From: an uncultured Candidatus Saccharimonas sp. | GTDB taxonomy: Bacteria; Patescibacteriota; Saccharimonadia; Saccharimonadales; AQU-01 | Assembly (NCBI GenBank): GCA_943358095.1 | Contig: CALRGT010000004.1 | Span: forward strand, 1,997 to 65,996 | Length of the DNA: 64,000 nt | Direction: 5' to 3' | Shown here: positions 4,661 to 35,241 of the stretch, one piece after another | How the letters are laid out: every line of letters starts with the position of its first letter | Numbering within the stretch: position 1 is the first letter of the stretch | Program-made: the position numbers and the translations under genes | Notes under the pieces: model-generated | What the model saw: the letters and a program-made list of their open reading frames with translations, nothing else | Database searches by the model: none | Told to the model about the DNA's origin: nothing

Positions 4661-4663
4661 AGT

Positions 4664-5239
4664 TTACCTTTTTAACGCCTGTTTAACGCGAGCCTCAGTG
4701 GACAGGCTTGAATCAACCTTACTTAGTGCCATGGCGGCGTCTTCACGGCTATATCCCAGGCCAACTAATGCTTGTAGCGCCTCATCTCCATCGCTAAATG
4801 ATGAGCTCTGCAAGAAAGCTGTTGCGTCATCGGCTGCATCGAGTCCAAGCTTGTTCTTAAGATCAACTACAACTCTTTCAGCAACTTTTTTACCAACACC
4901 ACTCGCGCTAGATATAAACTTAACATCTCCAGCCGCGATACTTGCTCTTACCTGGCCTTCGTTTGCAAGGTCGGTAATTGCTGCAGCAGCTTTGGGCCCA
5001 ACACCATTGACGCTTAATAGTTTTATGAATAGATCTTTGCGAGTTTTGGTTGAGAAGCCGTATAAGTCGTGCGCCTCTTCTTTAATATGCTCATAAATAT
5101 ATACTTTAATGTCCGTACCGAGGCGCATATGGGCCTGTTCGTCGCTAAGAGTATAGACGCCATAGCCTACTCCATTACAGTCAATAACGGTAACTCTACC
5201 ATCGTGTTCCAAAACTTTGCCACTTATTTGCGCTATCAT
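4664..5239 (-). CDS. ruvA: Holliday junction DNA-binding protein RuvA
   Basis: 191 aa with helix-hairpin-helix motifs (NGVGPKAA, SGVGKKVAERV). Immediately upstream of ruvB. Confidence 0.9.
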   Translation of the reverse strand: MIAQISGKVLEHDGRVTVIDCNGVGYGVYTLSDEQAHMRLGTDIKVYIYEHIKEEAHDLYGFSTKTRKDLFIKLLSVNGVGPKAAAAITDLANEGQVRASIAAGDVKFISSASGVGKKVAERVVVDLKNKLGLDAADDATAFLQSSSFSDGDEALQALVGLGYSREDAAMALSKVDSSLSTEARVKQALKR

Positions 5240-5245
5240 GTCCTA

Positions 5246-5722
5246 TTATTGTACACGAATACTGGTGATGTGTGTCAGCGCAGCCGCTAAAGCATCTGCG
5301 CAATCATCCGGCTTTGGTATTTCACTTAGACCCAAATGAACTCTAACCATTTCTTGCATTTGAGCTTTCGTAGCCCTTCCATACCCTGTCATCGCCATTT
5401 TAATTTGCAGTGGTGTGTATTCGTAAATTTCAACATTAGCTTTTTGCAGCGCTAATAATATCACTCCCCTAGCCTGACTAACTGTCATAGCGGTGGTTAC
5501 GTTTTGCGAGAAAAATAACTTTTCAACAACCGCAATATCGGGTTTATGCTCTGCAAGTAATTCCTGTAATGAGTCGTAAACATCTGCAAGTCGATTTGCC
5601 ACGGTATCGCCTATTACTGTCCTAATTACACCGGCATCAAGCAATTTAGGCGTATTCTTGGTTAGCTCAATAAACCCAAAACCAATAATTCCCGAGCCTG
5701 GGTCAATGCCAACAATTTTCAT
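5246..5722 (-). CDS. ruvC: crossover junction endodeoxyribonuclease RuvC
   Basis: 158 aa with a MKIVGIDPG N-terminus (catalytic Asp). RNase H-like resolvase pattern. Confidence 0.9.
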   Translation of the reverse strand: MKIVGIDPGSGIIGFGFIELTKNTPKLLDAGVIRTVIGDTVANRLADVYDSLQELLAEHKPDIAVVEKLFFSQNVTTAMTVSQARGVILLALQKANVEIYEYTPLQIKMAMTGYGRATKAQMQEMVRVHLGLSEIPKPDDCADALAAALTHITSIRVQ

Positions 5723-6456: not shown

Positions 6457-7923
6457 TTATATTTCTCCGCCTACGACTTGTTTTATATCTGTAATTATAC
6501 CACTGCTTGTCTTAATTTTATGCCATAATATTATAACTAACATAATCATTCCGCTGTACATCAACACCATTTGCCATACGGTTATTGACTGCTTCACTAA
6601 TGCTCTCGGCAATCTAGACAATAAAGACACCACATCTAACATATAGGTCAAAGATAGCCTCGACGGCATAGCCAGCCAGCCCGACATAAAAGGCACGAAC
6701 ATTCCAGCCAAACCAGCAACCAGACATAAGGACATCGCTATCGGAACTAGCGGTACCACCAACACATTGGCTAGCAATGCTACAGCCGAAAATTGTCCAA
6801 ATATATACATAATTATTGGCATAGTCATTATCTGAGCAGCAGAAGTCTCGATAATTAACGTCATTAATATTTTAGGTTGCCTACTTTTAAATACCCTTTT
6901 AGTTATTAGCGGTGCCAGAACTAATATTCCAAAAAAAGCTAGAAAAGATAAATACCAACCGATGTCCGACCATAGATATATTGGATAAACTCCGGCCGTG
7001 ATTACTGCAGCCAATAATATCAAAACTATAGGGCGAAATGTTCTGCCGTAATACCAAGCCCACAAACTAAGAGTACTTACAATTGCCGCTCGGACTATAG
7101 AAGCGCTGAAGCCTGTGAATAGCAAGAAAATTCCTATCAAAAGTAACGATGCGACTGTACTCTGATATTTTGAACGCTTTCTGAGCAACTTCCTGACGGC
7201 TCGCATTATTATTGTTAGATTATATCCAGACACTGCGACTACGTGAGTCAAGCCAACTGCCGCTAACTGCAGGCTAACAGATTTTGGTATCGTGCTGCGC
7301 TGACCGATCAACAATCCAAGACCAAAAGATGCAGCCGGCTCAGGCAATGCCGACTGCATTCCAGCCTCAAAACGGCGACGAATTACTTCAATTAAAGAGT
7401 CAGATTTTTCGATAACTTTTATGCTCGCAAATGATAGACTAGCCTGACGTGGTCCACGAGTTGGATATAATTTTGCACTAACCTGCACAATATCGCCCTT
7501 ATAAACCATTGGCTCGCCAAAACCCTTAACACCTATCTTGCCAACCAAGTCTATGCGATAAGGTTCAATAACTTTAATTTGACCTAAATCAAAACTAATT
7601 TGAGATTTATCTCCGTAGACTGCATCGCTATCAGCTACACCCACAACAACTACATTATTTTTATATAAATTATTGTAATTATCTAGCAGCGACATATATG
7701 CACTGCCTCGCCACCAACCGATAGACAACCCAAGTAAAATTAAAGGAACAGCAAACATAACTCTTGCTCTGCGCAGGGTTATTGTTATCAATAATAAGCT
7801 AACCGCTAGCCACCAATGTTGAAATTCAATTTTAGTTCGAGCCAGTCCTAGTCCGACCAATACTGCCGTCAAAAATACGGCTATTAAAGTCGTTCGCCGA
7901 AACTTATATTTATAACTAGTCAC
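6457..7923 (-). CDS. comEC: ComEC/Rec2 family DNA-uptake channel (no beta-lactamase-like C-terminal domain)
   Basis: 488 aa, polytopic, with an N-terminal OB-like region followed by the competence membrane domain. Confidence 0.75.
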   Translation of the reverse strand: MTSYKYKFRRTTLIAVFLTAVLVGLGLARTKIEFQHWWLAVSLLLITITLRRARVMFAVPLILLGLSIGWWRGSAYMSLLDNYNNLYKNNVVVVGVADSDAVYGDKSQISFDLGQIKVIEPYRIDLVGKIGVKGFGEPMVYKGDIVQVSAKLYPTRGPRQASLSFASIKVIEKSDSLIEVIRRRFEAGMQSALPEPAASFGLGLLIGQRSTIPKSVSLQLAAVGLTHVVAVSGYNLTIIMRAVRKLLRKRSKYQSTVASLLLIGIFLLFTGFSASIVRAAIVSTLSLWAWYYGRTFRPIVLILLAAVITAGVYPIYLWSDIGWYLSFLAFFGILVLAPLITKRVFKSRQPKILMTLIIETSAAQIMTMPIIMYIFGQFSAVALLANVLVVPLVPIAMSLCLVAGLAGMFVPFMSGWLAMPSRLSLTYMLDVVSLLSRLPRALVKQSITVWQMVLMYSGMIMLVIILWHKIKTSSGIITDIKQVVGGEI

Positions 7924-8151: not shown

Positions 8152-8227
8152 TGGAGGGCCCAGTGAGACAGCGTCCGGCTGCGCGCGGGCTAACTCACGA
8201 TGCCGTAAGTTCAAATCTATGGGCTCC
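8152..8227 (-). pseudogene. 76-nt tRNA-Lys-derived tRNA-like element (D/anticodon arms replaced, T-loop expanded)
   Basis: Compared with tRNA-Lys at 9263-9339, the last 18 nt are identical, the T-stem 5' strand TCGTGAGTT is identical, and the 5' acceptor strand plus U8A9 matches 10 of 11. The middle is 16 unrelated nt, and a 23-nt GC-rich insert sits in the T-loop. Confidence 0.65.
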
Positions 8228-8265
8228 AAATTTAGAACCCCTCTTTCGAGGGGTTCTAAATTTGG
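8226..8265 (-). terminator. 18-bp perfect hairpin downstream of the 8321-8824 gene
   Basis: CCAAATTTAGAACCCCTC-TTTC-GAGGGGTTCTAAATTTGG. It abuts a 9-nt copy of the tRNA-Lys 3' end at 8263-8271. Confidence 0.6.
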
Positions 8266-8320
8266 AGGGCCATTGTGTACGCTATTACAACTATTTTGAA
8301 AATCTGCAAGCATACTGAGA

Positions 8321-8824
8321 CTACGCTTTTATCTTGGATGTCGTGTTTTTAGGTTCGTGCGCTTTGACAAAACGATGATAGCCCAAGTACAGCACTGTAA
8401 CTAAGCCAACAGTGACCACAATAAATACGTACTTACTATTCTCCGACGCGAAACCGCGACCTAGGCTATATAACAAGACGAATAAACCACCTAACATAAC
8501 TCCGTCTGCCATTACTTTGATTTTATTCTCATATACCAAACTTACCGCAAGAAGAACAACTGCAGCGATTAAAGCTATTATTGATACATTGCGGTTATAG
8601 GGACGCATATCTTTATTATGCTGTTCCATTTTGATATCAAAGGCCCTTTGTGTGGCGAGTTCATCGGTTGTTGGTTCTTTGCTGAGCGTATTAAGTACTA
8701 CCGGAAACTCAGGCGCCTTGGGTCCTGGATAAAATGTATTTATACCTACACCAATGAAGATTGCTATTAGCAGGCCCAGAAAGAAAGTGTAGACTAGCTT
8801 AAGAATTTTATTGTCTTCTTTCAT
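8321..8824 (-). CDS. hypothetical membrane protein (about 4 TM)
   Basis: 167-aa ORF with hydrophobic helices at the N-terminus and in the C-terminal half. No motif. Confidence 0.55.
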   Translation of the reverse strand: MKEDNKILKLVYTFFLGLLIAIFIGVGINTFYPGPKAPEFPVVLNTLSKEPTTDELATQRAFDIKMEQHNKDMRPYNRNVSIIALIAAVVLLAVSLVYENKIKVMADGVMLGGLFVLLYSLGRGFASENSKYVFIVVTVGLVTVLYLGYHRFVKAHEPKNTTSKIKA

Positions 8825-9262: not shown

Positions 9263-9339
9263 TGGAGGGCCCAGTGAGACTTGAACTCACGACACCCTGC
9301 TTAAAAGGCAGGTGCTCTAACCAGCTGAGCTATGGGCCC
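9263..9339 (-). tRNA. tRNA-Lys (anticodon UUU), CCA encoded
   Basis: Manual cloverleaf: acceptor GGGCCCA/TGGGCCC, D arm GCTC-AGCTGGTTA-GAGC, anticodon arm CCTGC-CTTTTAA-GCAGG, T arm GTGAG-TTCAAGT-CTCAC. Confidence 0.9.
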
Positions 9340-9574: not shown

Positions 9575-10069
9575 TTACTTGTGCTTCTTTTTGTGAGTTG
9601 GGTGCGGTTGTTTGTGGGTTGATTTTAAGAATATAATGCTAACAAAAAGCCCAAAAGCAACTATGAATCCTTGCATGTTTTCAAGAGTAGCCCACATTTG
9701 GGTGCTGGTGATGTTTGTTTTTGTTGATCCAGCAAATAGCGGAACAACTGACAATGCGGTAAGTAGTCCAACAGCAATAGCGGGAAGTACATTTAGCATT
9801 GCTTTTGATCCTTTAGAGCTTTTGCGTAACAGAATTGCAGCAATAAATGCCGGCAACACTACTAGCGATATATTAAGCGCCTCCTCTGCCAACATTCCTT
9901 GATTAGGAACTGTCGATTTCATTACCAGAGTCAAGTCGCCAATAACAAACATTCTAAGCACAATTCCCGCACATAAGACCAGAAATACTACCGACGCACT
10001 AGTCCGAATAACAATCAGAAACATTGTAGTGAGGCCTGTAATAAGGCCAAGAATTATCAGAGCATTCAT
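9575..10069 (-). CDS. hypothetical polytopic membrane protein
   Basis: 164 aa with about 5 TM helices and a basic C-terminal tail (HKQPHPTHKKKHK). Confidence 0.5.
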   Translation of the reverse strand: MNALIILGLITGLTTMFLIVIRTSASVVFLVLCAGIVLRMFVIGDLTLVMKSTVPNQGMLAEEALNISLVVLPAFIAAILLRKSSKGSKAMLNVLPAIAVGLLTALSVVPLFAGSTKTNITSTQMWATLENMQGFIVAFGLFVSIIFLKSTHKQPHPTHKKKHK

Positions 10070-10157
10070 AGATATATCATAGCATGAGCACTTTGATACT
10101 TTTGCTTATTTAGCGTTGACAAAAATAATCTACAGACCAAACGGCTAGAATACTTAA

Positions 10158-11060
10158 CTACGCGCCGATACGGTCTTTGCGGCGCTTGCCCTTAGCGTTT
10201 TGCTCTACATATTCTATGATTTTTTCTGCTACGTTATGGCCAGTAATTTTTTCTATTCCAAAACCTGGGCTTGCATTTACTTCTAGAACTAGTGGACCAC
10301 GGTTAGATCTAATAATATCAACACCGGCAATCGAAAGTCCCATTGCTTTAGCGGCTTTGAGAGCAGTTTTGCGTTCTTCATCGCTAAGTTTAACTGGTGA
10401 TCCTTCGCCTCCTTGGTGAATATTGGACCTAAAGTCATCGTCTAGACTCTGACGCTTCATACTAGCAACAACTTTGCCGCCAACTACAAAAGCACGGATA
10501 TCAGTACCGGCCGATTCGGCGATAAATTCCTGAACCAAAAAACTCACGCTCTCTACATAAAATGCCTGCATTACAGCTTGAGCAGCTTTGCGTGTTTCCG
10601 CCAAAACCACACCATTACCATGAGTGCCACGAGCAACTTTAATGATTAGCGGTGTGCCGCCAGCTTGGTCGATAACAGCGTCAAGATCAGCAGTTTCGCG
10701 GGCGAATACAGTCTTAGGAATATCTACTCCTGCTTGCGCTAATAATTGACTAGAGCGTAATTTATCACGCGTACGGTTTATAGCAATTGACTTGGAAGTG
10801 GTAAATATTCCCTGCATTTCGAACTGTCGAGCGATAGCAGTTCCGTACTTAGTTAATCCTGATGCGATTCGAGGAATGATGACATCAATATCATCAAGAT
10901 TTTCACCCTCGTAATGAACGACTGGGTTACTCTGCTCAATAGTCACGTAACATTTAGCGTAATTAACTACGATAACTTCGTGACCGCGCTTCTCAGCTTC
11001 TTCCTTTAGACGTTTGGTCGAGTAGTTACCCGGACCCTTAGATAAAATTGCAATTTTCAT
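10158..11060 (-). CDS. rimK: RimK-family ATP-grasp alpha-L-glutamate ligase
   Basis: 300 aa. MKIAILS N-terminus and an ATP-grasp pattern throughout (GTHGNGV, LEVNASPG). Confidence 0.85.
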   Translation of the reverse strand: MKIAILSKGPGNYSTKRLKEEAEKRGHEVIVVNYAKCYVTIEQSNPVVHYEGENLDDIDVIIPRIASGLTKYGTAIARQFEMQGIFTTSKSIAINRTRDKLRSSQLLAQAGVDIPKTVFARETADLDAVIDQAGGTPLIIKVARGTHGNGVVLAETRKAAQAVMQAFYVESVSFLVQEFIAESAGTDIRAFVVGGKVVASMKRQSLDDDFRSNIHQGGEGSPVKLSDEERKTALKAAKAMGLSIAGVDIIRSNRGPLVLEVNASPGFGIEKITGHNVAEKIIEYVEQNAKGKRRKDRIGA

Positions 11061-11075
11061 ATTAAATCCTTTACC

Positions 11076-11495
11076 TTATAGCGTTACGATATCACCTGCA
11101 CGGTTTACGTCAACTAGAAATTTATTTTTCCGCAAAAAACGACGACCAATTAGCACTGGCCATTTCATGTCGCTGCGATCCGCCAAACTAAGTTCTATCG
11201 GATAAGTTCCATCTTTTATTACGATGTTAGTGGTGATAAAGAATCTATGTTCGCTTTTACCATTAGAGCTTTTTACGCGACGGTTAACGTAGTCTGTGGC
11301 TACTATAACAATCTCCGGATGATCAAATGGCGAAAAACGTAAATGCTTTACGTCATCCTTGATAAATTCTTCAATTTTAGTACTATGAAGCGCTCCAGTA
11401 AAAGCACCAGTATCAATCTTGGCTACCACTTTAGACATCCCATATTCTGGAAAGTCTACGTGCTCAAAAGTACTAATTATTTGTTGTTCGTCCAT
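11076..11495 (-). CDS. retropepsin-like aspartic peptidase (family formerly called ATP-dependent zinc protease), RimK partner
   Basis: 139 aa with a KIDTGA (D-T-G-A) motif and a LIGRRFL tail. Immediately upstream of rimK in the same orientation. Confidence 0.7.
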   Translation of the reverse strand: MDEQQIISTFEHVDFPEYGMSKVVAKIDTGAFTGALHSTKIEEFIKDDVKHLRFSPFDHPEIVIVATDYVNRRVKSSNGKSEHRFFITTNIVIKDGTYPIELSLADRSDMKWPVLIGRRFLRKNKFLVDVNRAGDIVTL

Positions 11496-11539
11496 CTTTA
11501 ATCTATATTATGTCAGATTATTAATTTTAAGGCGACTTA

Positions 11540-11656
11540 TTATTTATTAACTTTTTGAATTCGCAAAAAAACTAAGACAATCACAGTAAGCACGACTACC
11601 ACTAGAGCAATCATAAAGGGTATAAAGCCTCGTTGATTATTCATAAGCTTTTTCAT
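11540..11656 (-). CDS. possible 38-aa single-TM micro-protein
   Basis: MKKLMNNQRGFIPFMIALVVVVLTVIVLVFLRIQKVNK*. Below the ORF-track cutoff. No strong RBS seen. Confidence 0.25.
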   Translation of the reverse strand: MKKLMNNQRGFIPFMIALVVVVLTVIVLVFLRIQKVNK

Positions 11657-18130: not shown

Positions 18131-19912
18131 TTAATCGCGCTTTAGCATGACAGTAAACGCTTCTGCCGGAATCTCTACTTTTCCAAAACGTTTCATTCGT
18201 TTCTTGCCCTTAGCCTGCTTAGCTAAAACTTTCTTTTTGCGCGAAACGTCACCACCATATAATCCTGTCGTAACATCTTTTCGATAAGCGCTAATATCTT
18301 CTCGAGCGATAAATCTACCACCTATAGCTGCCTGCAATGACACTTGGAAGTTTTGACGAGGAATCACTTCTTTTAATTTAGATACAACATCTCGTCCTAC
18401 GCGCATTGATTCTGTACGGTGCAGCATAATACTTAGTGCATCCACCTTTTCTCCAGATACATAAAAGTCAACCTTGACCAAATCTTCACCACGATAATCA
18501 TCAAGCTCGTAATTAAAGGATCCGTAGCCGCTAGTTACACTTTTTAGTTGATCATAAAAATCGGTTAGCAAGTTAGCCAGTGGAGCCTCGAAACTAATCA
18601 AAGCTAACTGTGCATCAACATATGATAAGTTTTTCTGTATGCCGCGCTTGCTTATTATCAACTGAATAACTGCTCCAACGTAATCTTTAGGAACGACTAC
18701 TTCGCCCTTTATCCAAGGTTCGCGAATTTCAAGAATATTTGCAGGATCAGGCAAGTCGGCTGCAGATTTAATATCAAGTTCTTCGCCATTCATTAAACTA
18801 ATCTCATAATCAGTAGACGGATTAGTAACGACCAAATCTAGATTATATTCTCGTTCTAATCTTTCACGGACGATATCCATATGTAGTAATCCCAAAAACC
18901 CAATCCTTACTCCAAAACCTAGTACAGCAGAATTTTCTGGGGTAAATTGTAGGGCCGAATCGCTTAGTGATAGCTTTTCGATGGCATCTTTAAGTTCTTG
19001 ATAATATTCATTACTTTGAGGGAAGAAGCCGGCGTAAACAAAAGGCTTAACTTCTTTATAGCCTGGCAAATAATCCGAAGCAGGATTATTAGTAAGAGTC
19101 ACCGTATCACCAACACGAGCCTCACGAGTGCTCTTAAGGTTTGTAACGATGTAGCCAATTTCGCCCGCCTGTAAACTACCAAGAACTGACATGTCGGGCT
19201 TCAACATGCCTACTTCCAGGGCGATGCCTTTTGCTCCAGTTGCCATCATAGTGACTTGGTCGTTTTTGCTTATCGCTCCATCGACGACACGCACATACAA
19301 AACCACGCCTCGATAATCATCATAATAACTGTCAAAAATTAAAGCTGTCGTAGGGGCGGTAGCATTGCCACTTGGGCACGGAATATCTGTAACGACACGC
19401 TCAAGAACAGCTTCAATTCCTATTCCTGTCTTGGCGCTAATCAATAAAATATCTTCTGGCTTACAACCAAGTAAACCAACAACTTCTGCCGTAACTCGCG
19501 GCACATCTGCGGCCGGTAAATCAATTTTATTCAATACTGGGATGATAGTCAGGTCGGCTGCGAGCGCCAAATATACATTGGCTAAAGTCTGAGCCTGAAT
19601 GCCCTGAGAAGCATCAACAATTAATAAAGCGCCCTCACAAGCCTCAAGACTACGCGACACTTCGTAACTAAAATCAACATGCCCAGGAGTATCTATCAAG
19701 TTCAGCTCGTAATCCTTATAGGCCATACGCACAGGAGCTAATTTTATTGTAATTCCCTTTTCGCGCTCTAAATCCATACGATCAAGTAGTTGCGCTTTCA
19801 TATTTCTTTTCTCGACAGTTCCAGTAATTTCCAATAATCTATCGGCCAAAGTAGATTTACCATGGTCGATATGTGCGATTATACAAAAGTTTCTGATGTG
19901 GTCTTGTTTCAT
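18131..19912 (-). CDS. lepA: translation elongation factor 4 (LepA)
   Basis: 593 aa with GTPase motifs AHIDHGKST, DTPGHVDF and NKID, plus the LepA C-terminal region. Confidence 0.95.
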   Translation of the reverse strand: MKQDHIRNFCIIAHIDHGKSTLADRLLEITGTVEKRNMKAQLLDRMDLEREKGITIKLAPVRMAYKDYELNLIDTPGHVDFSYEVSRSLEACEGALLIVDASQGIQAQTLANVYLALAADLTIIPVLNKIDLPAADVPRVTAEVVGLLGCKPEDILLISAKTGIGIEAVLERVVTDIPCPSGNATAPTTALIFDSYYDDYRGVVLYVRVVDGAISKNDQVTMMATGAKGIALEVGMLKPDMSVLGSLQAGEIGYIVTNLKSTREARVGDTVTLTNNPASDYLPGYKEVKPFVYAGFFPQSNEYYQELKDAIEKLSLSDSALQFTPENSAVLGFGVRIGFLGLLHMDIVRERLEREYNLDLVVTNPSTDYEISLMNGEELDIKSAADLPDPANILEIREPWIKGEVVVPKDYVGAVIQLIISKRGIQKNLSYVDAQLALISFEAPLANLLTDFYDQLKSVTSGYGSFNYELDDYRGEDLVKVDFYVSGEKVDALSIMLHRTESMRVGRDVVSKLKEVIPRQNFQVSLQAAIGGRFIAREDISAYRKDVTTGLYGGDVSRKKKVLAKQAKGKKRMKRFGKVEIPAEAFTVMLKRD

Positions 19913-28821: not shown

Positions 28822-29065
28822 GACTTCTCCTAATTACTTTCTATCTTAATGATATCAGAAGATGTATGATTACCGGCAAATCGCATGAACAAAAAACTTA
28901 TGTATTTAGTGGTCGGTTTCTCGAGTCTATAAATCTGATATCAGTCATTTATTTGTACCTTTGGATCCAATAATTTCATCTTCAGTCCTAGATGGTATCA
29001 TGAAAAACCGCCAACTATCCATAGGCTCAGCCACAACAAAAAATAATGAGGTGAAATAATTTTCT

Positions 29066-29722
29066 TTACTTGTCAAAAGTAAGCGTTTTAGCAATCATCA
29101 GGTCAAAGTCTTTTAGTACATCTGGATAATTTGTCCCTATGTTATAGCCGGCAATATATTCCCTGCCGCCACTCACAAATAAGTATTGAACTTTTTTATC
29201 GCCAGCTTCTGGGCCAATGCCGAATTCATTGGTCAGTTTGTAAGTTCCGGCCTGCCTCTTACCCGTAACGCCATTTGCAGTAACAACTTCTGATTTAAGG
29301 TCGGTGTAGTCTGTGTCCTTCAATTCGCTGTCAGAGGTGGCAGTTTTTAGACTAGATGTAACATACATTTGGCCGATATTCTCTGTTGCACAAGTACCGA
29401 CCGATTTAGCATCACCACCAACCATAAATAACTCAGCCGAGCAGTATTCTGTATTGGCCGGTACTACCCAAAAGCTTGGATATTTTAACGAAAACTTTGC
29501 GGAAGTGTTAGTGTAAGCAATCCAATCTTTTGTTGGGTCAACAACCACAGCACTGGTTGCGTCATTAGCCTTACTTACTGCAACTTTTGATGTGCCTTTA
29601 GGGATTGTATTGGTGGTGTTATTTTTCTTGTATACAAAATACCCCGTACCACCAATAATCGCTACCACTGTTAACAGTAGTAATACTTGCACTATACCAA
29701 AACCTTTTTCATTTTTGTTCAT
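29066..29722 (-). CDS. hypothetical membrane-anchored secreted protein
   Basis: 218 aa with an N-terminal TM helix and two Cys in the ectodomain. No motif. Confidence 0.5.
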   Translation of the reverse strand: MNKNEKGFGIVQVLLLLTVVAIIGGTGYFVYKKNNTTNTIPKGTSKVAVSKANDATSAVVVDPTKDWIAYTNTSAKFSLKYPSFWVVPANTEYCSAELFMVGGDAKSVGTCATENIGQMYVTSSLKTATSDSELKDTDYTDLKSEVVTANGVTGKRQAGTYKLTNEFGIGPEAGDKKVQYLFVSGGREYIAGYNIGTNYPDVLKDFDLMIAKTLTFDK

Positions 29723-29985
29723 AATCCACCTTTCTATTTAAGGTCAGTATACTCTCAATACTTCGTAAACAAAAAAACAAGAGGGGGCACCCTGAGGCTT
29801 AACCACTGGCAGATGTGAAGAATGTGAAATAGTGTTTTTCATTTACTGCATCGTTTTGGAATAAAATCAATAAAAAATTCCAGCTAAATATAAAATCAAA
29901 TACTATCTGTTCTTATAAATACCCAAAAAAACTATTGCTGTGATTATTGCTCCAGCAATAAAAATATATATGTTTGGCATAATAT

Positions 29986-30129
29986 CTATTTTTTTAAAAG
30001 TGCGCCTAACGAAAGGATGGAAGGAACCCAAAGACCGACAAACAATCCTTGATCATGTTCACCGCTAAACCACAAATATAATGCTAATGTAAGAGAAAGA
30101 CCGGCAGCTGCGATAATGTAATTTTTCAT
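29986..30129 (-). CDS. possible 47-aa two-TM micro-protein
   Basis: MKNYIIAAAGLSLTLALYLWFSGEHDQGLFVGLWVPSILSLGALLKK*. Below the ORF-track cutoff. Confidence 0.35.
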   Translation of the reverse strand: MKNYIIAAAGLSLTLALYLWFSGEHDQGLFVGLWVPSILSLGALLKK

Positions 30130-30222
30130 AAAACTTTCATTATTAATATTATGTATGAACATTTCTATTATACGAAACTTCTAATATTAAACACAACCGT
30201 TTAAATAGCATCATTAATCACT

Positions 30223-30290
30223 TGGTAGCGGGGCCAGGGCAAGCGCACTTCAGTCCAGACATTACATCCCCTGCCCTCTAAAGGCAAGAT
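30223..30290 (-). repeat. tRNA-fMet 3'-end-derived element (distal copy), directly after the SDR stop codon
   Basis: Plus strand TGGTAGCGGGGCCAGGGCAAGCGCAC is identical for 26 nt to the copies at 31985 and 33503. The first 16 nt equal the 3' end of the tRNA at 33673-33747. Confidence 0.75.
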
Positions 30291-31019
30291 CTACTTGCCT
30301 TTAATAGAATAGCCGCCGTCAGCCAAAAAATCTGACCCAGTTATATAGCTAGCTTCATCAGAAGCAAGGAACATTACAAGTGGAGCAATCTCTTCGGGTT
30401 TAGATATTCGACCGAGTATTGTCCCGTCACTTATTCTCTTGAAGGTCTCCTCGTTCCAATCGTTAACTTGGTCAGTCTCTACGTAACCTGGTGAAACCGT
30501 ATTAAATCGTATGTCGGGGTAGGTTTTAGCAAGTGCTTTTGTTATTGATATAATGCCTGCTTTTGTGGCAGCAAAAGTCAGAGTACTAGTGGTCGCAAGA
30601 TTTGGCTGTCCTTTGATAGAGCTGATGTTGATGATACTTCCGGACTTGTTCGATTGCATTGACGGCACTACGGCCTGGATGCAGTGCAATGTGCCCAACA
30701 CGTTCGTTTTATATTCTTCAATTGCCTTATCATCGTCCATTTCAGTGACATCTTTTAGGAAGTTGCGAGCAACTCCTGCGTTGTTGACTAGTACATCAAT
30801 GCCACCCAACTCCTTTATAGCACTCAGAGTGGCGTTTTTGTCGGAAACGTCAAATACGGCTTTGACTGAGCCATCAAGACTCTTTTGAACTTTCTTTAAC
30901 TCCTCGCTATCCGTACGGCCATGGACTATTACTGTATAACCTTGTCTATGGGCTAATTCAGCGATAGCTTTCCCTATGCCTCTACTTGAACCAGTAATTA
31001 AGATTGTTTTCATAGTCAT
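30291..31019 (-). CDS. short-chain dehydrogenase/reductase family protein with Tyr-to-Phe change in the catalytic motif
   Basis: 242 aa with TGSSRGIG, NNAG and NISS motifs. The expected YxxxK reads FAATK. Confidence 0.8.
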   Translation of the reverse strand: MTMKTILITGSSRGIGKAIAELAHRQGYTVIVHGRTDSEELKKVQKSLDGSVKAVFDVSDKNATLSAIKELGGIDVLVNNAGVARNFLKDVTEMDDDKAIEEYKTNVLGTLHCIQAVVPSMQSNKSGSIINISSIKGQPNLATTSTLTFAATKAGIISITKALAKTYPDIRFNTVSPGYVETDQVNDWNEETFKRISDGTILGRISKPEEIAPLVMFLASDEASYITGSDFLADGGYSIKGK

Positions 31020-31031
31020 ATCATATCAGAC

Positions 31032-31062
31032 AAAATAAAATGACCCCAGTAATGAGGCCATT
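31032..31062 (-). terminator. intrinsic terminator after tRNA-like element E1
   Basis: Minus strand AATGGCCTC-ATTACT-GGGGTCATT forms a 9-bp stem with 2 G-U pairs, followed by TTTATTTT. Confidence 0.55.
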
Positions 31063-31073
31063 GTGCTTATGCT

Positions 31074-31133
31074 TGGTAGCCCAAGTGCATTCGAATTGGA
31101 ACGTACTCCTTGAAGAGTTGGCTAGATGGAATA
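31074..31133 (-). repeat. tRNA-like element E1 (GGGCTACCA family), directly after the HAD stop codon
   Basis: Minus strand ...ACTC-TTCAAG-GAGT-ACGTTCCAATTCGAATGCACTTGGGCTACCA. A near-identical 29-nt core is found at 31622-31650. Confidence 0.7.
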
Positions 31134-31517
31134 CTATAAATTTACAGCTAGAAAGTCTTCGAGAGCTTTTAGGTCTTTTTTCACTGGGTCGTAATACATT
31201 GTATTGATACCAGCTGTCTCAGCGCTCTTAACGGCCTCTGGGTTATGCTCAAAGAAGACTACTTCGTCTGGCTTCAATCCATAGCGTTTTAACATAATTT
31301 CAAAATACTTAGGGTCTGTCTTTTCTGGGTCATGCTTTAGAGTAAATACTTCGTACGGCACATCATCCAACTTAAACTCTTTGAATTGCTCGTCATTAGC
31401 ACCAGTCAGGACGATTTTCTTATTAGGAAAAGTCTCTAAGAGTGCGTGCATTTCTTTGAAGATAGTTCCATCTTTAAACACCAAGCCGTCTATTGCGTCC
31501 ACAAGTATTGTTTTCAT
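31134..31517 (-). CDS. HAD-superfamily hydrolase-like protein
   Basis: Start trimmed to ATG 31517 (MKTILVDAIDGLV, a DxD-like motif I). A later FFEHNPEAVKSAETAGI resembles motif IV. 127 aa. Confidence 0.55.
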   Translation of the reverse strand: MKTILVDAIDGLVFKDGTIFKEMHALLETFPNKKIVLTGANDEQFKEFKLDDVPYEVFTLKHDPEKTDPKYFEIMLKRYGLKPDEVVFFEHNPEAVKSAETAGINTMYYDPVKKDLKALEDFLAVNL

Positions 31518-31556
31518 ATCTCCATCATACCAAACCCCAAGCAAGACTCGAACCAT
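31518..31556 (-). promoter_or_regulatory. conserved upstream block with extended -10 (TGGTATGAT) and T-loop-like GGTTCGAGTC
   Basis: Minus strand GGTTCGAGTCTTGCTTGGGGTTTGGTATGATGGAGAT-ATG. A homologous block lies at 32970-33010. Confidence 0.4.
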
Positions 31557-31580
31557 TTAACAGCTAAGAATTATTGGTAA

Positions 31581-31610
31581 CAAAAAACCTCTGCTACGAA
31601 TAACAGAGGT
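31581..31610 (-). terminator. intrinsic terminator after tRNA-like element E2
   Basis: Minus strand ACCTCTG-TTATTCGTAG-CAGAGGT followed by TTTTTTG. Confidence 0.7.
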
Positions 31611-31621
31611 CAAAGTGCTTA

Positions 31622-31713
31622 TGGTAGCCCAAATACATTCGAATTGGAACCTTATCCTTGAGGAGATAAGTTGGTGGACACAGCTTAACAGGGAGGCGAC
31701 GTGTTAATTGAGA
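31622..31713 (-). repeat. tRNA-like element E2 (GGGCTACCA family), directly after the stop of the 64-aa ORF
   Basis: Minus strand ...CTTATC-TCCTCAAG-GATAAG-GTTCCAATTCGAATGTATTTGGGCTACCA. The stem differs from E1 by changes on both strands that keep pairing. Confidence 0.7.
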
Positions 31714-31908
31714 CTACTTTTTAGGAGAGAAGTAGTCAATAGCACCTGAGACCATACAAACGACTCCAACGAAGCCTATAAAAACGGTCCCCCAGTTTAC
31801 ATGCCCAGCTTTGTTCAGACTATCTGTGCTATTGATTAATGCTAGGCCAATTAGTATCTGTACAATTGCCAATCTTGAGTTAGTAGTTTTTGCCATACTA
31901 TTATTCAA
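31714..31908 (-). CDS. small two-TM membrane protein
   Basis: 64-aa ORF with two hydrophobic helices. No motif. Confidence 0.5.
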   Translation of the reverse strand: MNNSMAKTTNSRLAIVQILIGLALINSTDSLNKAGHVNWGTVFIGFVGVVCMVSGAIDYFSPKK

Positions 31909-31946
31909 TCCTTATTTATTCACTCAATTATGCTCGACTTTATGAT

Positions 31947-31974
31947 AAAATAAAAGACCTCGTTTCCAGAGGTC
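31947..31974 (-). terminator. intrinsic terminator after the tandem tRNA-half block
   Basis: Minus strand GACCTC-TGGAAAC-GAGGTC followed by TTTTATTTT. Confidence 0.7.
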
Positions 31975-31984
31975 AAAATGCTCA

Positions 31985-32378
31985 TGGTAGCGGGGCCAGG
32001 GCAAGCGCACATTAATTTGTGCGCCGAGAGGCTTCGGGCAACAGACTAATGACCGAACCATGGGACTTCCGCCATTACTGACTAGGGGCCAGGAATACTG
32101 GGGTATAATCCGCCCGTTTGTCGCTAAAGCGACGGGGGATTAGCGAACCATGGGACTTGCTGGTTCAAATACTGCGGGGCCTGGAATATTCCCTCGCTCC
32201 GGCCCGCCAAATCATTTGGGAGTGGCGGGTCGGGCTCAGGATATAATTTTGTCATAACAAAATTATCGAACCTTTTTGGCTCGAGCCCTGAGCCTCGGCC
32301 AAGAAAAAAGCTCCATCTTACTATGGGACTATTTTCTTGGGAGCAGGGTTAGTTTGCTCTACCGATAGGGACTAGAAC
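31985..32378 (-). repeat. ORF-free GC-rich block of three tandem degenerate tRNA-fMet 3'-half modules
   Basis: Pseudo 3' ends lie at 31985-32000 (exact), 32078-32092 (TGACTAGGGGCCAGG) and 32170-32184 (TACTGCGGGGCCTGG). T-arm-like CGAACCATGGGACTT occurs at 32054 and 32144. Several 7-9-bp hairpins lie in between. Confidence 0.7.
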
Positions 32379-32969
32379 CTAGTTTGCCTTTCTGTACATG
32401 TAGTAATAAGTCGTCACTATCACATTAAAAGTAAGACCTTTCATGCAGCTCACAATAAGTGGTGTAGAGCCAATCATGGCTGCGTATGTAAGGGTGCAAA
32501 GTAGAGCGCCGTAGACGAAATATAAGCTTTTTTCTGAAATGCCACTTGTTCTTTTGGAAGTCACAACATGATAAACCCATGGCGCGGCCGCTATGGTATT
32601 GAATATTACCGCAAACCATCCAGCACTTGCGGGGTAAGCACCAATTAACCAAGCGGCCAGTGGGGCAACCAGAGCTACGCTGAGAATTGCTTTTTGACGT
32701 TTTGACTTGTTGGTAACTAGGTAGCCGATTGTCAAACTTGTGATAATAAACATTGCAAAATTAGTCACTAACGGTACCCATAAATTCTCAGAAGCAAAGT
32801 AAACCATCCACCCGATGTTCCCTGCTGCGTAAAGGGTAAGTGTCGGGGCATAAAGACCTTTAGGGTTGCGAGTATGAACCAGCTTAGCAAGTTGCGAGTA
32901 GTTAGAGAGCAACCAAAAAGCCTCAGCTGAGATAATCAATAAATTTTCAATAATTGTTTGTGTAAGCAC
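32379..32969 (-). CDS. polytopic membrane protein, possibly PQ-loop/SWEET-like transporter
   Basis: 196 aa with a GTG start and 6-7 TM helices. Two internally similar halves each carry a basic loop after the first helix (SQLAKLVHTRNPKG and HVVTSKRTSG). Weak pattern call. Confidence 0.4.
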   Translation of the reverse strand: MLTQTIIENLLIISAEAFWLLSNYSQLAKLVHTRNPKGLYAPTLTLYAAGNIGWMVYFASENLWVPLVTNFAMFIITSLTIGYLVTNKSKRQKAILSVALVAPLAAWLIGAYPASAGWFAVIFNTIAAAPWVYHVVTSKRTSGISEKSLYFVYGALLCTLTYAAMIGSTPLIVSCMKGLTFNVIVTTYYYMYRKAN

Positions 32970-33010
32970 TTATGCATATCATACCAAACAACCAGACAGG
33001 ACTCGAAACT
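32970..33010 (-). promoter_or_regulatory. conserved upstream block with extended -10 (TGGTATGAT) and T-loop-like TTCGAGTC
   Basis: Minus strand TTTCGAGTCCTGTCTGGTTGTTTGGTATGATATGCATAA-GTG. Homologous to 31518-31556. Confidence 0.4.
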
Positions 33011-33081
33011 GAAATACAGATTTAATAATATCGCACAACCAAAGCGACTGGTCTTGAAGCCAATCTCTATCTTTAAAGTCT

Positions 33082-33113
33082 TGGTAGCCTTGGTTTGTTA
33101 TAACTGGAACTTA
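33082..33113 (-). repeat. degenerate tRNA-like element E3 directly after the stop of the 99-aa ORF
   Basis: Minus strand TAAGTTCCAGTTATAACAAACCAAGGCTACCA shares GTTCCA...GGCTACCA with E1 and E2. Confidence 0.4.
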
Positions 33114-33413
33114 CTAATAGCAGAAGTGTGAATCGAAGTCTTTCTTCCATTTAGCAATATCACTCGTTGAAGCACCTGATGACTCTACCTGCTTCATGAG
33201 CTTTTCATGACCCGGGCCAGAACAAAATTGCCTGTCAGTATAGGACATAATGAAACTCAAGGCAGTATTATTATACCGATTGGTGCCTGCATTATTAAAA
33301 ACCACCCAAAATACAGTAACAGCTATAAGTATCGACATGTTAACTGCTAACGATATAATCATGACTATTTTTATAACTTTGGTGTCATCCTTAGTTTCTG
33401 ATTGTTTTTTCAT
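33114..33413 (-). CDS. small membrane-anchored protein
   Basis: 99 aa with one TM helix and two Cys in the C-terminal part. No motif. Confidence 0.5.
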   Translation of the reverse strand: MKKQSETKDDTKVIKIVMIISLAVNMSILIAVTVFWVVFNNAGTNRYNNTALSFIMSYTDRQFCSGPGHEKLMKQVESSGASTSDIAKWKKDFDSHFCY

Positions 33414-33502
33414 TTATTCCTTTGATTATTTAACTTAAGCATAATACATACGCAAATAATATTACAGAACCCCGATTTCTGCAAAGTCATGATGCTTATG
33501 TT

Positions 33503-33640
33503 TGGTAGCGGGGCCAGGGCAAGCGCACATTAATCCAGGCGCCCGCTACGCTGGGGCCTGTGACTAATGACCGAACCATGGGACTTGCACCAGCTAAAGC
33601 TGTTGCGTCCCAGAACCGAGTCCTAAACCAGGACCAAAGA
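33503..33640 (-). repeat. tRNA-fMet 3'-half-derived element adjacent to the intact tRNA
   Basis: 33503-33534 is identical for 32 nt to 31985-32016. The 25-nt block GACTAATGACCGAACCATGGGACTT at 33562-33586 equals 32044-32068. Confidence 0.75.
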
Positions 33641-33666
33641 AAATGACCCATCTTGCGATGAGTCAT
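33633..33666 (-). terminator. intrinsic terminator after tRNA-fMet
   Basis: Minus strand AATGACTCATC-GCAA-GATGGGTCATT (one mismatch) followed by TTTCTTT. Confidence 0.65.
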
Positions 33667-33672
33667 TTACTT

Positions 33673-33747
33673 TGGTAGCGGGGCCAGGACTCGAACCTGG
33701 GACCTCGTGGTTATGAGCCACGCGAGCTGCCGCTGCTCCACCCCGCG
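33673..33747 (-). tRNA. initiator-like tRNA-Met (CAU), CCA encoded
   Basis: CGCGGGG-TG-GAGC-AGCGGCA-GCTC-G-CGTGG-CTCATAA-CCACG-AGGTC-CCAGG-TTCGAGT-CCTGG-CCCCGCT-ACCA. Position 1:72 is an unpaired C/U. The 5' half is close to the E. coli tRNA-fMet sequence as I recall it. Confidence 0.9.
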
Positions 33748-33904
33748 TCGTCGATGTGTGATGGTTGGGTAACTGAGCTGCCGGCAAAACAAGTTTGACC
33801 GTCAGTTCTAGTTACCCCACCAAGCCCTCTCCTCCCGATTTCGAGAATCCTCTCTCGAAATCGATTAAGACATTAGACCATTGAAGACATTTGGAACAGA
33901 TTAG

Positions 33905-33933
33905 ATAATACCTTAACAGGGGGGAATTGTCAA
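33905..33933 (-). promoter_or_regulatory. near-consensus sigma-70-type promoter about 150 nt upstream of tRNA-fMet
   Basis: Minus strand TTGACA-17 nt-TATTAT. Confidence 0.6.
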
Positions 33934-33948
33934 TCTTATAACTAATAT

Positions 33949-34401
33949 TTATTTTGTTTGGCGATGCAAAAAGAAGTTGATCCATGCCTGGAAATTCTTT
34001 TGATAACCCGGCTTATCCCCTACTCGCAAAACAACTTTTGGCTTTGCTGCTTTTGCGGTATTCACCACATTCGCTTTAGCAACTTTATCTGGTATCAAAT
34101 AGACCTTTTCTCCTGGTGCTGCCAAGCCGAATTGTCGCCTCGCCGATAATTCCAAAAATTCATCAGTATTGTAGTACTCGTTCTTTAGATTTAGATTATC
34201 GTTCTCCAATTTACTGACTTCGTTTTGCTGTTCTAGCCTGGCAATTTGTTTCTGAAATTCATAATTTGACTGTATGGCCTTCAACCCGTTCCAACTAACT
34301 ATCAACGCTATGACGCCAAAAGCAATCAGACTAAGACTGCTCGTGTCTGTAAATATTCGCCAGTAACCTTTTTTGTGCCAACTTTTTAATTTTTGAAACA
34401 T
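33949..34401 (-). CDS. septum formation initiator family protein (FtsB/DivIC-like)
   Basis: 150 aa with one TM helix followed by a leucine-zipper-like coiled coil (QIARLEQQNEVSKLENDNLNLKNEY) and then ARRQFGL. Confidence 0.7.
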   Translation of the reverse strand: MFQKLKSWHKKGYWRIFTDTSSLSLIAFGVIALIVSWNGLKAIQSNYEFQKQIARLEQQNEVSKLENDNLNLKNEYYNTDEFLELSARRQFGLAAPGEKVYLIPDKVAKANVVNTAKAAKPKVVLRVGDKPGYQKNFQAWINFFLHRQTK

Positions 34402-35074: not shown

Positions 35075-35150
35075 GGGGGTATAGCTCAGTGGTTAGAGCA
35101 GTCGGCTCATAACTGATTGGTCCTTGGTTCAAATCCAAGTACCCCCACCA
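35075..35150 (+). tRNA. tRNA with CAU anticodon (elongator Met or Ile2 type), CCA encoded
   Basis: GGGGGTA-TA-GCTCAGTGGTTAGAGC-A-GTCGG-CTCATAA-CTGAT-TGGTC-CTTGG-TTCAAAT-CCAAG-TACCCCC-ACCA. Confidence 0.9.
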
Positions 35151-35173
35151 AAGGTTTCCTTTATACCAAATTA

Positions 35174-35206
35174 GTAGAGCCGCAACAATAGCGGCTCTAC
35201 TATTTT
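35174..35206. terminator. bidirectional terminator hairpin between the tRNA and dus
   Basis: GTAGAGCCGC-AACAATA-GCGGCTCTAC followed by TATTTT. Confidence 0.7.
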
Positions 35207-35241
35207 AGATATTAGTGATTTTTAGTTTTCGTAATGACAAG

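Follow-up and report, generated by a model that had tools for sequence, protein, structure and literature searches.

A strain-variable array of single-gene cassettes at the initiator tRNA gene of a Saccharibacteria genome: a candidate integration hotspot

How does a bacterium with a tiny genome, thought to be poor in mobile elements, come to carry a chain of small genes strung between copies of the end of a tRNA gene? Saccharibacteria are such bacteria, living attached to other bacteria, and because few mobile elements are presumed in them, their gain and variation of accessory genes is poorly understood. The question is raised by a 64-kb stretch of a Saccharibacteria ("Candidatus Saccharimonas") genome, hereafter the window, in which five small genes follow the 3' end of the initiator tRNA gene (tRNA-fMet) and no recombinase gene is found; genome-level statements of absence apply to these 64 kb. 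With a probability of roughly 60%, we take the chain to be an integration hotspot at the tRNA-fMet 3' end, built by serial site-specific recombination, with a recombinase that has been lost or acts in trans. The stretch is best explained as the tRNA-proximal part of a strain-variable genomic islet anchored at this tRNA gene.

An array with two kinds of junction

The 16-mer TGGTAGCGGGGCCAGG stands on the plus strand at 30223, 31985, 33503 and 33673, four copies against 0.02 expected by chance, and none of 100 shuffles gave four. These are exactly the positions listed in an initial annotation made from the sequence alone, whose further statements about the repeat were also recovered: the three extra copies are identical to each other over 26 nt and two of them over 32 nt, a 25-nt block recurs at 32044 and 33562, and all tail copies lie on the tRNA strand. 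An initiator-type tRNA-Met(CAT) gene with an encoded CCA has the copy at 33673 as its 3' end; the gene (33673–33747, minus strand, as are the other features of the array) was detected by ARAGORN and scored at 59 bits by the Rfam tRNA model. Its initiator identity follows from the 5' end CGCGGGGTGGAGCAGC and a mismatch at positions 1:72, both read off the sequence, and it is the sole initiator-type tRNA gene in the window. A terminator-like hairpin, evident from the sequence (AAGTAAATGACTCATC-GCAA-GATGGGTCATTTTCTTTGG, 33634–33672), lies directly 3' of it, and the same hairpin type follows tRNA-fMet in relatives. The last bases of the gene, GCTACCA (33673–33679), are the proposed recombination core (attB). 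Sequences ending in GCTACCA, seen as TGGTAGC on the plus strand, occur seven times in the 3.5 kb between 30223 and 33673; the remaining 60 kb have only two more on this strand, one of which is the 3' end of another tRNA-Met gene.

The 3.5-kb chain comprises five single-gene cassettes and two kinds of tRNA-fMet-derived junction, namely a hairpin module with a tRNA tail (three exact, two degenerate) and a second family of pieces, here called family-2 (three). Junctions occupy all the gaps between genes in the chain, which therefore consists of five one-gene units and not three segments. The initial annotation's description of a chain delimited by four copies falls short of this, there being about nine junctions of two kinds. 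The displaced tRNA 3' copies comprise three exact 16-nt ones, two degenerate ones and three that keep the last 7–8 nt only, all on the tRNA strand. In the direction of the tRNA the order is tRNA, terminator, module 1 with tail, m99, family-2 piece c, PQ196, terminator, modules A and B, module C with tail, m64, family-2 piece b, the HAD-like gene, family-2 piece a, the SDR gene (short-chain dehydrogenase), terminator, truncated module with tail, and flank, and all five cassettes are co-oriented with the tRNA. A cassette starts right after "...ACCA" with a short conserved leader, (AGCA)TAAGCA, followed in most cassettes by a terminator hairpin and a promoter-like block of the TGGTATGAT type. Family-2 junctions of the window lie at the stop codon or at most about 30 nt away, and its module junctions are placed past a terminator hairpin. 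No unit has convincing terminal inverted repeats.

The module is a hairpin of 60–100 nt with covarying stems, fused to tRNA positions ~59–76. Module 1 (33503–33599; nhmmer E=5e-22, 92.8 bits with covariance model R1, covariation) ends in tail copy 1 (33503–33518), module C (31985–32078; E=1e-21, R1 78 bits) in tail copy 2 (31985–32000), and a truncated module reduced to its last ~22 nt (30223–30260; E=6e-5) in tail copy 3 (30223–30238). Module A (32170–32298), recognized by sequence comparison, and module B (32079–32169), recognized as direct repeat D3 and from its sequence, carry the degenerate tails CCAGGCCCCGCAGTA (32170–32184) and CCTGGCCCCTAGTCA (32079–32093). Module A is homologous to the unit 3' of tRNA-fMet in L007 (labels of this form denote the contigs and loci compared), with which it has gccaaaaaggttcgataatttt...aaaattatat in common, and module B carries a full tail followed by chromosomal flank in strain L307. 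The 380-nt, GC-rich non-coding gap at 31985–32378 is thus three tandem modules, two of them with degenerate tails; its identity as a tmRNA, RNase P RNA, group I intron or the like was rejected for want of an Rfam match. Rfam 15 gave only tRNA hits at gathering score and, over 29700–34000, no credible match at E<=5.

A profile and two covariance models locate the module in the window and in many Saccharibacteria-type contigs. Its body is near-constant (GGTTCGGTCRTTAGTC ... GATTAAYGTGCGCT), and its last 16–19 nt are the tail of whichever tRNA sits directly upstream: tRNA-Ser in L228, tRNA-Lys(TTT) in L205, tRNA-Lys(CTT) in L281, another tRNA-Met in L016 and L035, and tRNA-fMet in the window, L012, L031, L206 and L268, with a degenerate fMet tail in L046 and L004. 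Identity between module and tRNA begins at about position 59 (range 58–61 in all 10 cases measured, exactly 18 nt in five). A pairing of the body with the tail, of the acceptor-stem type, was rejected because the same body occurs with unrelated tails. Within the body, an 11-sequence subfamily has 98.3% of cells paired and double changes in 7 of 11 pairs; none of 500 shuffles scored as high, and slid registers fall to 25–40% paired. An 8-sequence subfamily has 95.8% of cells paired and double changes in 7 of 21 pairs. These alignments were fitted to the covariance models, which somewhat favours structure, and the same helices came out of independent MAFFT/RNAalifold runs. Most loci run in the order tRNA, terminator, module and tail, often with a second terminator next and often with no gene between; where a locus has both module and tRNA-fMet, a module always lies 40–99 nt 3' of the tRNA. 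A scan of viral and metagenome collections with GGTTCGGTCRTN{30,60}GTGCGCT, a pattern that proved too loose, returned ~226 fetched stretches of which six held true modules, none of them viral. Pairs of empty and filled loci that could fix the insertion boundaries of the module were sought among relatives, which are too diverged for this (~70% identity). The covariation argues for a folded nucleic acid, RNA or single-stranded DNA, and the position behind terminators, the fusion to different tails at a fixed position and the truncated copies argue for a DNA-level site. The GC skew of the window is compatible with a hairpin strand on the lagging-strand template, a bias to be expected of a site that folds as single-stranded DNA. 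On our best reading, the module-tail is a portable folded hairpin fused to the last 16–19 nt of the upstream tRNA, which supplies extra copies of the core.

The same system acts at a second tRNA of this genome, judging by tail copies and a module-like insert beside tRNA-Lys(TTT) (9263–9339, minus strand). A pseudo-tRNA-Lys recognized in the sequence (8152–8290, minus strand) has a 24-nt module-like insert in its T-loop and an exact 16-nt tail copy (8152–8167), a partial tail copy lies at 8263–8271, and an unannotated 167-aa membrane gene (8321–8824) stands between tRNA-Lys and its tail copies.

Family-2 pieces resemble a diverged 3' half of tRNA-fMet, from the anticodon loop to the CCA, and end in GGCTACCA. 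Piece a (31074–31138, nhmmer E=3e-14) starts 2 nt past the HAD stop codon, piece b lies at 31622–31687 (E=1.5e-14), and piece c (33082–33147, E=4e-10) overlaps the end of m99. The family is present in at least 10 other Saccharibacteria loci, always in tRNA orientation, where it starts anywhere from just inside a gene's last codons to ~80 nt past the stop codon. Its sequence is conserved, with no conserved pairing on inspection, and its last 7 nt track the host tRNA (GCAACCA or GCTACCA). Of 24 Saccharibacteria tRNA-fMet loci for which 1 kb or more of downstream sequence exists, 11 have the module, family-2 or both in tRNA orientation.

Strain variation and the recombinase of relatives

Same-species contigs from other samples and metagenome-assembled genomes (MAGs), retrieved by exact-protein look-ups, make possible the comparison of cassette order that the initial annotation had called for; the arrangement types come from the samples ERZ27280286 and the MEHR18-2, GROS21-1 and KAVA23-1 series. 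The look-up of the DivIC-like protein matched no record, and the closest contigs of the genome collection, L001 and L002, are uninformative on the cassettes, their collinearity ending at 35220 beside the other tRNA-Met. At least three orders and contents were found. Type W, represented by the window and by L314 (an independent assembly, 99.98% identical over 5.3 kb), has m99, PQ196, m64, HAD and SDR. Type M, in ten contigs from several samples and MAGs (L326–L335), has module and tail, m64, m99 and an SDR allele of 85% protein identity, beyond which come an extra 199-aa gene and a ~5-kb block and then a cupredoxin gene; the fragments L315 and L316 have the same m99–SDR junction. Type P (L307, L308) has m64, m99, PQ196, modules A and B with tail, and then the flank. 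The core flanks of W and M are 97% identical. Of the three observations that, taken together, the initial annotation would have counted against integration, an invariant locus and a lack of variant junctions are contradicted, and the third, that the repeats belong to one conserved structured RNA family, applies in so far as the 26–32-nt repeat is the 3' flank of a conserved, covarying hairpin family.

Where they were mapped, the tail and family-2 breakpoints of the W/M/P polymorphism fall in the proposed core, GCTACCA / CCTGGCCCC; in L307 the overlaps at the breakpoints are GCTACCA (7 nt) and CCTGGCCCC (9 nt). The ~430-nt m99 unit stands in different places among the types, with its left breakpoint inside GCT(A/T)CCAA. 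Misassembly is unlikely because the repeats are only 16–32 nt long and independent assemblies support each type. One recurrent breakpoint lies elsewhere, in a promoter-like block (TGGTATGAT / CATATCATAYCARACAA) just before the start codon, where the m99 leader runs into PQ196 or SDR depending on type; other recombination routes therefore contribute. That block (minus strand TTGTYTGRTATGATATG) precedes the start codons of SDR (31017–31033), PQ196 (32975–32991) and HAD (31507–31535), coincides with the strain breakpoint, and leaves leaders that look very short. Among this species' contigs there is neither a closed circle nor a bare tRNA.

The cassette genes themselves are as initially annotated: an SDR with FxxxK, a weak HAD-like match, membrane proteins of 64 and 99 aa and a weak PQ-loop match. 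The m99 open reading frame (ORF; 33114–33413) encodes a 99-aa membrane protein found identically in other cassette contexts. PQ196 (32379–32969), a 196-aa membrane protein with a weak Pfam PQ-loop match, is missing in type-M strains and is followed by a terminator-like hairpin of the CCAAGAAAA...TTTTCTTGG type (32299–32340; inverted repeat I5, sequence). The m64 ORF (31714–31908) encodes a membrane protein of 60–64 aa, whose exact 60-aa product adjoins the tRNA in type-M strains. HAD140 (31134–31556), a weak Pfam match to HAD-like hydrolases, is missing in types M and P. SDR242 (30291–31019; Pfam 1e-51) has the short-chain dehydrogenase fold with FxxxK for YxxxK, and its type-M allele is the 85% identical one. 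GC content is flat at ~0.40 across the window, and the cassette genes match core genes both in GC and in GC at third codon positions (GC3); the comparison of cassette and core composition proposed earlier, run for GC and GC3, thus gave no mark of foreign origin.

The variable islet extends further from the tRNA, as far as the cupredoxin gene (window 29000–29850; L326 11973–18582). Its distal part, delimited by comparing L326 with the window (29006–30222, minus strand), holds g58 (29986–30162) and the pilin-like g218 (29066–29722). The ~5-kb type-M block, missing in the window, encodes AstE/AspA-like, DUF3182 and Trp repressor proteins together with unannotated genes of 170–231 aa. L326 has three copies of the 5' region of g218 (window 29696–29827), suggesting that the variable pilin-like genes form a paralogous family.

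A Pfam scan of 55 ORFs spread over the window found no Resolvase, Phage_integrase, rve or other transposase domain, and tblastn with the serine recombinase of relatives gave no match in it, in agreement with the initial statement that the 64 kb lack an integrase or transposase. In relatives, however, such an enzyme is coupled to the same tRNA. At L268, tRNA-fMet is followed by a 529-aa protein with Resolvase, Recombinase and Zn_ribbon_recom domains, ~6 kb of cargo, a family-2 piece, a pilin-like gene, a second family-2 piece, and a terminator with module and tail. This recombinase has at least 226 relatives at 47–73% identity, the few with a source name being labelled Saccharibacteria or Patescibacteria; it is 25–28% identical to phage serine integrases and aligns to the catalytic domain of the TP901-1 integrase (8e-10). 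Linkage was examined in L268, in four fetched relatives on long contigs (L322–L325) and in a remnant at L074. In all six contexts the recombinase gene crosses the 3' half of tRNA-fMet in antisense, with its stop codon in the anticodon loop, and family-2 pieces lie distal to it in tRNA orientation, 5–10 kb past the intact genes and within 1 kb of the tRNA in the remnant. The ORF (L268 5716–7305; L322–L325 ~10001–11600) crosses the tRNA-fMet terminator and 3' half to a TGA formed by the anticodon loop (...GGTTATGA), and the last ~14 codons of the recombinase are therefore tRNA-gene sequence. At the distal end of L322, two one-gene units are each closed by a family-2 piece, which is the window's pattern with the enzyme retained. 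The L074 remnant retains just the C-terminal third of the enzyme, truncated at a partial family-2 piece, so that recombinase decay is seen directly. A recombinase trace is present in 1 of the 11 positive tRNA-fMet loci, and enzyme-free arrays are therefore the rule. The cargo of the full elements (L322–L325, L268) looks defence- or stress-related (KAP NTPase, AAA_15/AAA_21 ATPase, Schlafen/AlbA_2, DUF4145, a Y-family polymerase together with SRAP, a protein kinase, a MarR-like regulator) and includes no phage structural genes.

The junction of arm, core and following sequence forms an imperfect dyad, ...GAATGYACTTGG-GCWA-CCAAGTNAGATTC..., centred on ACTTGG-GCWA-CCAAGT with GAAT motifs, and the tRNA arm has a similar TTCGARTnn at shifted spacing. 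An arm-core-arm dyad is the layout of serine-integrase attP and attB sites. We infer the crossover base of this junction. Our best reading of these sequences is that family-2 is probably the arm that the element contributes to an attachment site. This site would serve a family of large serine recombinases, found across the Saccharibacteria, that insert DNA into the last bases of tRNA-fMet, at the centre GCWA of ...GCWACCA.

Several observations concern the neighbourhood of the array. Between a promoter-like TTGACA...TATTAT and tRNA-fMet, on the minus strand at ~33748–33870, lies a conserved element of ~120 nt. It consists of two hairpins with a GGAGGAG linker between them, occurs in the window, L003, L004, L007 and L324, and gave 41 pairs in RNAalifold, 20 with compensatory changes (5 sequences), and no Rfam match; it looks like an undescribed small RNA that may be co-transcribed with the initiator tRNA. 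In other relatives the promoter lies directly 5' of tRNA-fMet. A displaced tRNA-fMet 5' fragment (CGCGGGGTAGAGCAGTGGCAGCTC...) between the upstream RNA-like element and the real tRNA in L004 (~19500–19620) hints at recombination on the 5' side too. The other tRNA-Met (35075–35150, plus strand) may be another tRNA-linked variable point: L001 (5354–6508) and L002 (11037–12784) lose collinearity ~70 nt past its 3' end (window 35151–35220) and have a common, different sequence beyond, and L016 and L035 have modules after this tRNA-Met type.

Weighing the origin of the array

Serial integration at tRNA-fMet accounts for the strain-variable orders, for the breakpoints in the core and for the coupling of a serine recombinase to tRNA-fMet in relatives. 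The initial annotation, which took the copies for traces of serial integration, is supported in this central point. A DNA circle carrying a site arm would recombine at the tRNA-fMet core or at a displaced copy of it, incoming units would push older ones outward, and these cores would also allow units to drop out or change order. The recombinase gene would either have decayed or act from elsewhere in the genome or population. We infer that this recombinase family made the window's array, and likewise the order of events and the role of the hairpin. Several points weigh against this account. There is no recombinase within the 64 kb, and none beside any of ~20 module instances, the junction type of all four exact tails; at L072, L281, L206, L004 and L026 none was found beside the modules, L026 having only an unrelated IS3-type transposase. 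The module arm matches the tRNA arm for only ~9–11 nt beside the core and may therefore be a poor site for this recombinase, and the leaders of the mini-cassettes are unlike the recombinase-side arm of full elements. The recurrent breakpoint between the m99 leader and PQ196 or the type-M SDR lies in a 14–17-nt promoter-like block and not in the core. The SDR alleles, 15% apart in protein, point to exchange of divergent DNA rather than simple shuffling, and the variants found were all alternative chromosomal arrangements, none with a circular or excision junction.

The modules, and perhaps family-2, could instead be functional structured RNAs, tRNA-like 3' elements or small RNAs of which each transcript carries one, with no insertion involved. 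The strong hairpin covariation (98% of cells paired, no equal in 500 shuffles, a second subfamily similar), the free exchange of GC, CG and AU at pairs, untypical of a protein-read palindrome, the invariant G.U and further wobbles that fit the tRNA-sense strand, the constant spacing of 40–99 nt from tRNA-fMet where both occur and the co-orientation of every piece with the genes all speak for this. We nevertheless think it improbable, for the modules have no Rfam match even at E<=5 and sit behind terminator hairpins, where a promoter of their own would not fit; a constant body with an unpaired tail that varies with the local tRNA (Ser, Lys, fMet) is a signature of insertion or recombination; truncated and degenerate copies exist (30223–30260; tails A and B); whole units differ among strains; and family-2 lacks conserved pairing on inspection. 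Natural transformation followed by ordinary homologous or short-homology exchange at conserved boundaries, with no dedicated recombinase, is about as unlikely. The window encodes PilM (351–1412), RuvABC (3629–5722) and a ComEC-type competence channel (6457–7923), which make transformation a plausible entry route for cassette DNA; the recurrent breakpoint in CATATCATAYCARACAA would suit such exchange, as would the uneven divergence of cassettes between strains (m99 and m64 99–100%, SDR 85%), expected of patchwise import. The segments shared at breakpoints are only 7–17 nt, however, which is too short for efficient RecA-dependent exchange, and transformation leaves unexplained both the original duplication of the tRNA tail and the hairpin fused to different tRNAs at a fixed position. 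There exists, moreover, a recombinase family physically tied to tRNA-fMet and family-2.

Much less probable than either is a local tandem duplication of the tRNA gene with decay to pseudo-tRNAs, the genes between being ordinary chromosomal ones. It would explain why the pieces are tRNA-fMet-derived, several with T-arm 5' halves (AAGTCCCATGGTTCG), and why more T-arm-like scraps lie upstream of PQ196 and HAD. It is already disfavoured, given that the hairpin and family-2 consensus are conserved between genomes whose Dus proteins are ~60% identical, and on other tRNAs, that independent decay would not converge on one consensus, and that cassette content differs between strains with 97% identical flanks. 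We give slightly less credence still to the module-tails being complementary DNA (cDNA)-type copies, for which a tRNA 3' end would have served reverse transcription as primer or template. The classic primer-binding site is 18 nt long, set by the modified base at position 58, and the onset of identity at position 58–61 in 10 of 10 cases (five of exactly 18 nt), whatever the tRNA, would fit it; this boundary is equally well explained by a fixed crossover point, the CCA is genome-encoded here, and no reverse transcriptase was found in the window ORFs scanned or near any module examined.

A broader proposal goes beyond serial integration. Saccharibacteria, and perhaps other bacteria of the candidate phyla radiation (CPR), might possess an integron-like capture system without the integron integrase, served by a trans-acting serine or host recombinase, with the folded module as attachment platform. 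At the 3' ends of tRNA genes, single-gene cassettes with tRNA-derived sites would integrate, come out again and be re-sorted. The module, perhaps in the form of single-stranded DNA imported by the competence machinery, would re-target between tRNA-fMet, tRNA-Lys, tRNA-Ser and tRNA-Met. We regard this as a tentative idea, likelier than the alternatives just discussed and clearly less so than serial integration by a recombinase that was lost or acts in trans.

Known systems and meaning

Serial integration at tRNA-fMet places the array nearest to the islands of tRNA and tmRNA (transfer-messenger RNA) genes catalogued by Islander (PMC4383910), tandem arrays among them, which likewise have an intact tRNA with displaced 3' fragments in direct repeat marking unit ends. 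Newer units beside the tRNA, accessory cargo and presence/absence differences among strains are further likenesses. Integration into tRNA and tmRNA targets is usually by tyrosine integrases (PMC4383910). Such islands are usually kilobases long with their own integrase, whereas the units here are of 0.4–0.9 kb with one gene and no integrase, the enzyme linked in relatives is a large serine recombinase, and there are two kinds of junction. The integrase within the island is absent from the window, present in L268 and L322–L325, and a remnant in L074.

The tycheposon islands of Prochlorococcus, with serial integration, scattered partial tRNAs and degraded integrases, resemble the array in several respects: a streamlined genome, tRNA-adjacent islands in which incoming elements push older ones outward, and islands in most genomes with few intact elements (10.1101/2020.12.28.424599). 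In that system 910 of 937 elements use tyrosine recombinases, and many have replication modules (10.1101/2020.12.28.424599). Neither a covarying hairpin site nor a regular one-gene-per-site pattern is reported for tycheposons, and the host phylum differs (here CPR/Patescibacteria). The window has the flanking layout of full and partial tRNA and lacks the recombinase and replication gene; in the relatives' elements inspected, the only polymerase-type match is a Y-family (IMS) repair polymerase, and neither a primase nor a replicative helicase was found.

Integrons, too, have co-oriented, mostly single-gene cassettes, each closely followed by a 60–100-nt imperfect hairpin or conserved site, a structure conserved above sequence (as in the module) and a cassette order that varies by strain. 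Unlike integrons, the array has no IntI tyrosine recombinase and no attI-Pc platform, with no Phage_integrase domain in the 55 window ORFs; its cassettes appear to have their own promoter-like and terminator elements, and its anchor is a tRNA gene. Identity of the module with attC was rejected, its boxes GTTAGTC...GATTAAY standing in the reverse order of R''(RYYYAAC)...R'(GTTRRRY). IMEX elements (integrative mobile elements exploiting Xer) such as CTXphi have no recombinase of their own; their hairpin site is under structural selection, and a folded single-stranded attP is used by the host recombinase. The array may resemble them in lacking an enzyme and in its hairpin site, although nothing in it points to Xer recombinases or a dif-like target. 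With large serine integrases of the TP901-1, phiFC1, phiC31 and Bxb1 type, the relatives' enzyme has in common the Resolvase, Recombinase and zinc-ribbon domains, and the imperfect dyad site is about 40–50 bp. The target differs, being the initiator tRNA 3' end with an ORF that runs antisense across the tRNA to the anticodon loop, there is no phage structural cargo, and enzyme-free mini-cassettes have the same site arm. A protein with these three domains is absent from the window and present in relatives, and the imperfect inverted-repeat site is found in the window itself. What is unusual is thus a serine rather than tyrosine enzyme overlapping the tRNA gene, tiny one-gene units each with a site, a covarying hairpin module that switches tRNAs, and the host phylum.

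Searches of an open-access full-text library turned up no account of such arrays in Saccharibacteria (TM7) or Patescibacteria; a paper on oral TM7 reports prophages and transposases, and its main text has none of the words 'integrase', 'recombinase' and 'tRNA'. The locus points to a concrete site, the 3' end of the initiator tRNA and of other tRNAs, where small membrane, pilin-like and enzyme genes swap between strains, and to a candidate enzyme in a serine recombinase family that is widespread. With its tRNA tails, the covarying hairpin is a conserved element not described before; were it a folded recombination site, cassette sites read by structure would have a second example next to the integron attC. 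Should the recombinase and its ~50-bp sites work as proposed here, they would offer a tool for site-specific integration in a phylum that is hard to manipulate.

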